Below are positions 56,801-57,044 of a DNA stretch of 64,000 nucleotides, piece by piece (the stretch's first letter is position 1; the number at the start of each line of letters is the position of its first letter). The notes beneath the pieces were generated by a model that worked only from the letters and a program-made list of their open reading frames with translations, searched no databases and was not told the DNA's origin. The position numbers and the translations under genes are program-made. This DNA is from Escherichia coli (GTDB lineage Bacteria > Pseudomonadota > Gammaproteobacteria > Enterobacterales > Enterobacteriaceae): the NCBI RefSeq assembly GCF_030013595.1, contig NZ_CP122768.1. One strand, given 5' to 3'.

Positions 56801-56924
56801 TAAAAGCGTGTTATACTCTTTCCCTGCAATGGGTTCCGTAGCAGGGAAAGAGACCCCGTTGTCTCTTCCCGGTATTTCATCTCTATGTCACATTTTGTGC
56901 GTAATTTATTCACAGCGTTGCATT

Positions 56925-56951
56925 GAACTTGTGGATAAAATCACTGTCTGA
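56925..56951 (+). promoter_or_regulatory. Sigma-E-type promoter upstream of rpoH (P3-like) with overlapping DnaA-box-like element
   Basis: GAACTT-N16-TCTGA matches the sigma-E consensus; gtggataaa (reverse complement of TTATCCAC) in the spacer. Confidence 0.6.
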
Positions 56952-57044
56952 TAAAACAGTGAATGATAACCTCGTTGCTCTTAAGCTCTGGCACAGTTGT
57001 TGCTACCACTGAAGCGCCAGAAGATATCGATTGAGAGGATTTGA

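Follow-up and report, generated by a model that had tools for sequence, protein, structure and literature searches.

The rpoH P3 sigma-E promoter and its overlapping DnaA box in the ftsX-rpoH intergenic region of Escherichia coli

The DNA analyzed here is a 64-kb stretch of an Escherichia coli genome (the window), and the region of interest, 56801..57044, is exactly the intergenic region between ftsX and rpoH. The ftsX stop codon, TAA at 56798..56800 of the plus strand, forms the left edge of the regulatory region and was placed from the ORF list and the RefSeq annotation of an identical strain. On the right the region ends at the ATG of rpoH, which begins at 57045. The rpoH coding region (57045..57899, plus strand) specifies sigma-32, a protein of 284 amino acids, and was identified from the ORF list, from RefSeq annotations and from the ORF at 57045, which matched the NCBIfam equivalog TIGR02392, rpoH_proteo, with a score of 430 bits (cutoff 323). 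A ribosome-binding site, GAGAGGA, is evident in the sequence at 57033..57039 (plus strand) and is conserved in the orthologue alignment. The gene order ftsY-ftsE-ftsX-rpoH-livJ is given by RefSeq both for K-12 MG1655 and for a strain 100% identical to the window over the spacer. Of 5426 complete E. coli genomes, 5425 contain the ftsX-rpoH spacer, in each case on the chromosome. The window thus comes from an E. coli strain other than K-12.

Directly after ftsX, the plus strand carries a very stable hairpin (56816..56852) with a 12-bp stem, CTCTTTCCCTGC/GCAGGGAAAGAG, that is not followed by a T-run. Its RNA fold has a predicted energy of -25.6 kcal/mol (z -5.1) and its stem bases are conserved across genera. 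A search of 56700..57400 against Rfam returned no known RNA families. Elsewhere in the window an Rfam match (60.1 bits; gathering score 58) to the shuA/chuA 5' UTR thermoregulator lies at 5316..5347 on the plus strand and indicates that the haem-uptake chu locus is present here; to our knowledge this locus is absent from K-12.

The motif TGtTATACT (56809..56817, plus strand) resembles an extended -10 element and is a candidate for the distal sigma-70 promoter P1, in which case transcription would be expected to start about 220 nt before the ATG. This position fits that of P1, which we take to lie more than 200 nt upstream of rpoH. Because the hairpin overlaps the predicted P1 start and adjoins ftsX, it is probably a 3' structure of the ftsYEX transcript, a 5' leader structure of P1 transcripts, or both. 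A second extended -10 motif, TGaTAAAAC (56949..56957, plus strand), is a very tentative candidate for the sigma-70 promoter P4, which presumably starts a few nucleotides downstream of P3 and overlaps it. Both candidates were placed by their extended -10 motifs because a strict two-hexamer sigma-70 scan reported neither of them; that scan also did not find P5, and its one weak match lay over the start codon. Nearer to rpoH, a pattern scan identified a sigma-54 -24/-12 element, TGGCACAGTTGTTGCT (TGGCAC-N5-TTGCT; 56989..57004, plus strand), which corresponds to the published rpoH P6. It is the only match to TGGCAC-N5-TTGCW in 64 kb, where 0.13 were expected, and it matches the sigma-54 site described for Salmonella rpoH, TGGCACGGTTGTTGCTCG (PMC3844500, which also gives the reference for E. 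coli).

Between these elements lies a sigma-E-type promoter. The sequence-only reading of this DNA had noted that GAACTT-N16-TCTGA at 56925..56951 matches the sigma-E consensus known for rpoH P3, and the motif is present exactly as described, 94 nt 5' of the rpoH start codon and unique in the window. A single match was found on the two strands of the 64 kb, whereas dinucleotide-preserving shuffles gave an expectation of 0.01. From 28 mapped promoters the sigma-E consensus has been worked out as GGAACTTTT at -35 and (T/C)GGTCAAAA at -10; a spacing of 16 nt is strongly preferred, the discriminator is 5 or 6 nt long, and transcription starts at A or G (PMC1312014). The -35 element GAACTT (56925..56930, plus strand) is at least 95% conserved among 72 distinct orthologous sequences and, when the preceding base is included (tGAACTT, 56924..56930), agrees with 6 of the 7 bases of GGAACTT. 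The spacer (56931..56946, plus strand) has the preferred length of 16 nt, within the 15-19 nt found for sigma-E promoters. The -10 element TCTGA (56947..56951, plus strand) is a poorer match, with 3 of the 5 bases of TCAAA (the T, the C and the final A); it keeps the conserved C at position 2 and is found as TCTGA in 63 of 72 orthologous promoters.

With a discriminator of 5 or 6 nt, the P3 transcript is predicted to start on the plus strand at 56957 (C) or, more likely, 56958 (A), that is, 87-88 nt before the ATG, and the A would give an rpoH leader of 87 nt. The prediction follows from the sigma-E promoter geometry cited above and from the start mapping in K-12 as we take it to be, with which a +1 at 87 nt before the ATG agrees.

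The alignment with K-12, by which the sequence-only reading was to be checked, leaves little doubt about the identity of this promoter. In the intergenic region 277 of 281 aligned positions are identical to MG1655, with four differences: GCG instead of AGC at 56915..56917, and T instead of G at 56945. None of these affects the -35 and -10 elements, the two DnaA boxes described below, the sigma-54 element, the ribosome-binding site or the distance to the ATG, so that the motif can be regarded as the orthologue of K-12 rpoH P3. The T at 56945 is the sole difference within the promoter (26 of 27 bases are identical); it lies in the spacer at about -13, three bases before the -10 element. For the K-12 promoter the dependence on sigma-E is well documented. 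P3 is described as transcribed exclusively by sigma-E (PMC1851643), serves as the standard chromosomal sigma-E reporter and as the control template to which in vitro transcription is normalised (PMC3326320), and is transcribed in vitro by E-sigma-E (PMC3490749). Genomic SELEX-chip with reconstituted sigma-E holoenzyme gave a high peak, 37.4, in the rpoH/ftsX spacer (PMC5493296). Because the sequence here is that of the validated K-12 promoter, we consider it functional in spite of the weak -10 match.

That weak match could also be read as a sign that GAACTT and TCTGA are a chance resemblance, with transcription arising solely from the overlapping sigma-70 promoters P4 and P5. An rpoH construct is indeed highly active in vivo without sigma-E, which indicates that sigma-70 promoters overlap this region (PMC3326320). 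However, chance would supply only 0.01 such motifs in the window, 72 of 74 other species share the geometry (see below), and the sequence is that of a promoter from which purified E-sigma-E is known to transcribe in vitro and to which it binds in SELEX. We therefore regard a purely fortuitous match as extremely improbable, and the element as almost certainly the E. coli rpoH P3 sigma-E promoter with its DnaA boxes, at which DnaA represses rpoH.

The second claim of the sequence-only reading was that the spacer contains gtggataaa, the reverse complement of a near-consensus DnaA box. The letters are present at 56931..56939, but the description needs two amendments: the box is perfect rather than near-consensus, with its register one base to the left, and it lies mostly but not wholly in the spacer. 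The plus strand reads TGTGGATAA at 56930..56938, so that the minus strand there carries the consensus DnaA box TTATCCACA without a mismatch. Its base at 56930 is shared with the last T of the -35 element and the remainder occupies spacer positions 1-8, so that the box, at about -28 to -20 of P3, overlaps the core promoter. It is identical in K-12. An additional box, TTATTCACA (56906..56914, plus strand; about -52 to -44 of P3), fits the relaxed consensus TTWTNCACA and lies 15 bp upstream of the perfect box in the opposite orientation. The perfect 9-mer is not rare in itself, as one was found in 64 kb and 0.5 were expected; its weight comes instead from its position, from the second, relaxed box, and from its conservation. 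Matches to TTWTNCACA in the window number 9, two of which lie in the rpoH upstream region. A relaxed DnaA box within 35 nt upstream of the -35 element was found in 37 of 72 orthologous promoters.

Occupancy of this site by DnaA has been mapped in K-12. A 2024 ChIP-seq study assigned the bound region at rpoH to tTTATCCACAagTTCAATGCAa (PMC11317965; also PMC12371093), a 22-mer that is the reverse complement of window positions 56918..56939 and thus includes the perfect box. Table 1 of that study describes a "double DnaA box" whose weak second half, TTCAATGCA, corresponds to 56919..56927 on the minus strand and overlaps the -35 element (PMC11317965). The reported peak coordinate, 3600944, falls at about 56884 of the window, some 50 bp upstream of the perfect box, an offset that we regard as within the resolution of ChIP-seq. 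Enrichment at rpoH was 4-fold, the lowest in the study, compared with 5- to 218-fold at other sites (PMC11317965). The same source lists rpoH among DnaA-repressed genes and cites Wang and Kaguni 1989 for it (PMC11317965). DnaA occupancy and its effect on rpoH transcription are documented for the identical K-12 sequence (PMC11317965) and would be predicted for the window strain.

The conservation of the promoter and its DnaA box was examined by searching one-genome-per-species contigs with a degenerate DNA pattern for an RpoH peptide of 11 residues. This identified 76 loci, 74 of them with enough upstream sequence, from the Enterobacteriaceae and from Erwinia, Pantoea and Mixta. Of the 74 other-species genomes, 72 have GAACTT-N16-TCNNA and 68 have TGTGGATAA in register, its first base being the last T of the -35 element. 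When the 72 distinct sequences were aligned with MAFFT, the longest run in the spacer of columns with at least 95% identity was GAACTTGTGGATAA (56925..56938). The conservation of GTGGATAA within this run is not explained by sigma-E, because sigma-E prefers TT after GAACTT (PMC1312014). This 74-species footprint, in which the -35 element and the DnaA box form the most constrained part of the spacer, is a modest by-product of the analysis.

The left half of a cAMP-CRP site offers another account of the conserved 9-mer. Positions 56930..56945 read TGTGGataaaaTCACt, a CRP-like site that overlaps the DnaA box and would be the proximal CRP box; with the form TGTGG-N6-TCACT it agrees with TGTGA-N6-TCACA at 8 of 10 half-site bases. 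If the 9-mer were kept mainly for CRP, DnaA binding would be incidental. In keeping with this, a weak CRP-like site, TCATCtctatgTCACA (56877..56892), is a candidate distal CRP box whose right half, together with the block downstream of it, is conserved; the two sites are centred at 56884.5 and 56937.5, 53 bp apart, and a CytR octamer lies between them, which is the usual architecture. Control of rpoH by CytR and CRP has been published (PMC3454398; PMC9032294), and the DnaA ChIP signal is weak (PMC11317965). The pattern of conservation, however, points the other way. Conservation extends to all 9 DnaA-consensus bases, and thus to the ATAA, which is not part of what CRP specifies. The TCAC of TGTGGataaaaTCACt, conserved in the Enterobacteriaceae, is lost in all 10 of the Erwiniaceae, yet 8 of these 10 keep TGTGGATAA. 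Because the Erwiniaceae retain the 9-mer without the CRP-like right half, the conservation of the DnaA box is independent of that half-site and exceeds what the overlapping elements account for. In addition, DnaA occupancy has been measured in vivo and assigned to the perfect box (PMC11317965). We consider it unlikely that TGTGGATAA serves chiefly CRP, and the view of the 9-mer as a mere CRP half-site is largely rejected on the Erwiniaceae pattern; the two readings of the sequence are not mutually exclusive, and a functional DnaA box remains the one we prefer.

The octamer that abuts the -35 element, GTTGCATT (56917..56924, plus strand), is a perfect match to the CytR consensus taken from PMC3454398. 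It owes this to the GCG at 56915..56917, where K-12 has AGC and the corresponding octamer is CTTGCATT. Kallipolitis and Valentin-Hansen reportedly described a cAMP-CRP/CytR nucleoprotein complex at rpoH in 1998. The window may resemble that system in having two CRP-like sites 53 bp apart, the distal one a weak match, on either side of a CytR octamer in a region that overlaps P3 to P5; it differs in the octamer itself (GTTGCATT as opposed to CTTGCATT), and the positions given here for the CRP and CytR sites are putative, having been placed by consensus. Regulation of rpoH by CytR/CRP is cited in PMC3454398 and mentioned in PMC9032294; low cassette scores at rpoH are reported in the former. A further block, TGTCACATTTTGTGCGTAA (56886..56904), is 80-100% conserved in the sequences of 72 species and has the upstream DnaA box on one side and the weak distal CRP-like site on the other. 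It may be a distal CytR half-operator or a site for another factor.

Taken with the published work, these elements suggest how the region may operate. Sigma-E RNA polymerase recognises tGAACTT and TCTGA, 16 nt apart, and should start at about 56957/56958 to give an rpoH leader of about 87 nt; through P3 the synthesis of sigma-32 would be tied to envelope stress and extreme heat. DnaA may bind both to the perfect box, at the end of the -35 element and the upstream half of the spacer, and to the weaker box at 56906..56914, in the UP-element zone. From these boxes it would block the access of polymerase, by steric hindrance, to P3 as well as to the sigma-70 promoter P4 that overlaps it, thereby repressing rpoH; we infer steric exclusion as a mechanism consistent with the reported repression. 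Several regulators may compete for one short stretch at P3, because CRP-like and CytR-like sites fall within the same 60 bp and a sigma-54 promoter lies downstream. Envelope stress (sigma-E), replication status (DnaA) and carbon or nucleoside signals (CRP/CytR) would then converge at a single site on sigma-32 synthesis.

A comparable arrangement occurs at the DnaA-repressed dnaA, mioC and uvrB promoters, which likewise have a high-affinity 9-mer where DnaA would block polymerase. At rpoH, by contrast, DnaA would block an ECF-sigma promoter that overlaps one for sigma-70, and its occupancy in vivo is low: enrichment is 4-fold, compared with values of 5- to 218-fold for the other sites (PMC11317965). 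The layered control of the heat-shock sigma factor that the sequence-only reading suggested is an accurate description and an old one, since reviews count five promoters and as many transcription factors at the rpoH locus (PMC3661553, PMC9032294). Rather than adding anything new to biology, as rpoH P3 and its DnaA boxes have already been described, the result confirms that a textbook composite regulatory site can be recognised by a reader of the sequence only.

Compared with K-12, the window keeps the same locus, -35 and -10 elements, 16-nt spacing and distance to the ATG for P3, and differs in the promoter by the T at 56945. The DnaA boxes and the flanks of the perfect box are also identical, and the three bases that differ at 56915..56917 lie between the two boxes. 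The distribution of the T/G difference was determined with exact 41-mers covering the -35 element, the DnaA box, the -10 element and the predicted +1. One or other version was found in 5423 complete E. coli genomes: T in 478 of 5426 (about 9%) and G, as in K-12, in 4945. In other genera the equivalent base is T in 51 cases and G in 15. K-12 therefore carries a base that is less common in other genera, where T predominates, but that is the majority form within E. coli, among which the T of the window is a minority; this, too, is a modest by-product. Upstream of the -10 element the window reads cTGTCTGA and K-12 cGGTCTGA, where the sigma-E consensus has (T/C)GG. The G thus fits the extended -10 (cGGTC) better, and the T weakens the upstream "GGTC" part.

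The T at 56945 also generates a LexA-box core, CTGT-N8-ACAG. The palindrome CACTGT-N8-ACAGTG (56942..56961) spans the -10 element and the +1 of P3, and it is perfect solely with this allele. Likewise, the inverted repeat TCACTGT/ACAGTGA has a perfect 7-bp stem, in RNA or in DNA, with the T allele alone; its RNA energy is -8.1 kcal/mol (z -3.6), compared with -3.6 for K-12. The minus-strand "terminator-like" match returned along with the strict sigma-70 scan is this same repeat (56941..56962). We scored the palindrome with an approximate heterology-index matrix assembled from sites taken to be genuine LexA boxes, which provides a lead and not a test. On this matrix the approximate index was 9.6 for the T allele and 13.5 for the K-12 allele, the training sites ranging from 1.3 to 9.1; elsewhere in the 64 kb just two sites, one of them the dinQ box, scored as well.

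If the palindrome were a LexA operator, rpoH P3/P4 would be under SOS control, a link lacking in K-12, which has CGGT at this position. The core motif, the index of 9.6 against 13.5 on that approximate matrix, matched by just two other sites in the window, and the perfect 7-bp repeat confined to the T allele speak for it. Against it, the matrix gives a lead rather than a test, the C at box position 7 is unusual, and the sigma-E -10 region already places a constraint on the left half. Moreover, CTGT is combined with AGAG in most genera and CGGT with ACAG in most E. coli, so that the halves are not selected together; the full palindrome recurs in a Cedecea/Enterobacter sp. cluster, and the right half is AGAG in most genera. 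With its core present, a borderline index on the approximate matrix and halves that are not co-conserved, the site at 56942..56961 does not qualify as a LexA box. From this matrix and the comparative sequence we judged the resemblance probably coincidental, and SOS control through this palindrome very unlikely; the preferred reading of these bases remains the P3 promoter.

The alleles of the window strain, T at 56945 and GCG at 56915..56917, might in principle rewire rpoH control relative to K-12, since by sequence they would complete the LexA-like palindrome, bring the CytR octamer next to the -35 element to a perfect match and make the extended -10 poorer in its GG. Were this so, a subset of lineages could have SOS- or nucleoside-responsive control of sigma-32. 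The possibility is a slim one, only marginally better than that of the LexA operator, and both gains, the CytR octamer and the LexA-like site, are probably coincidental.

Other features lie elsewhere in the window. A strong LexA box, TACTGTATGATTATCCAGTT (15882..15901), is part of the dinQ-agrAB locus and was used as the internal positive control of the LexA scan. Next to it are two AgrB-family antisense RNA genes on the minus strand, at 15501..15584 and 15735..15818 (108 and 100 bits). Finally, TGCTGAACATTCTTCCAGCA at 32576..32595 on the minus strand is a borderline LexA-like site, with an approximate index of 9.4 on the same approximate matrix.
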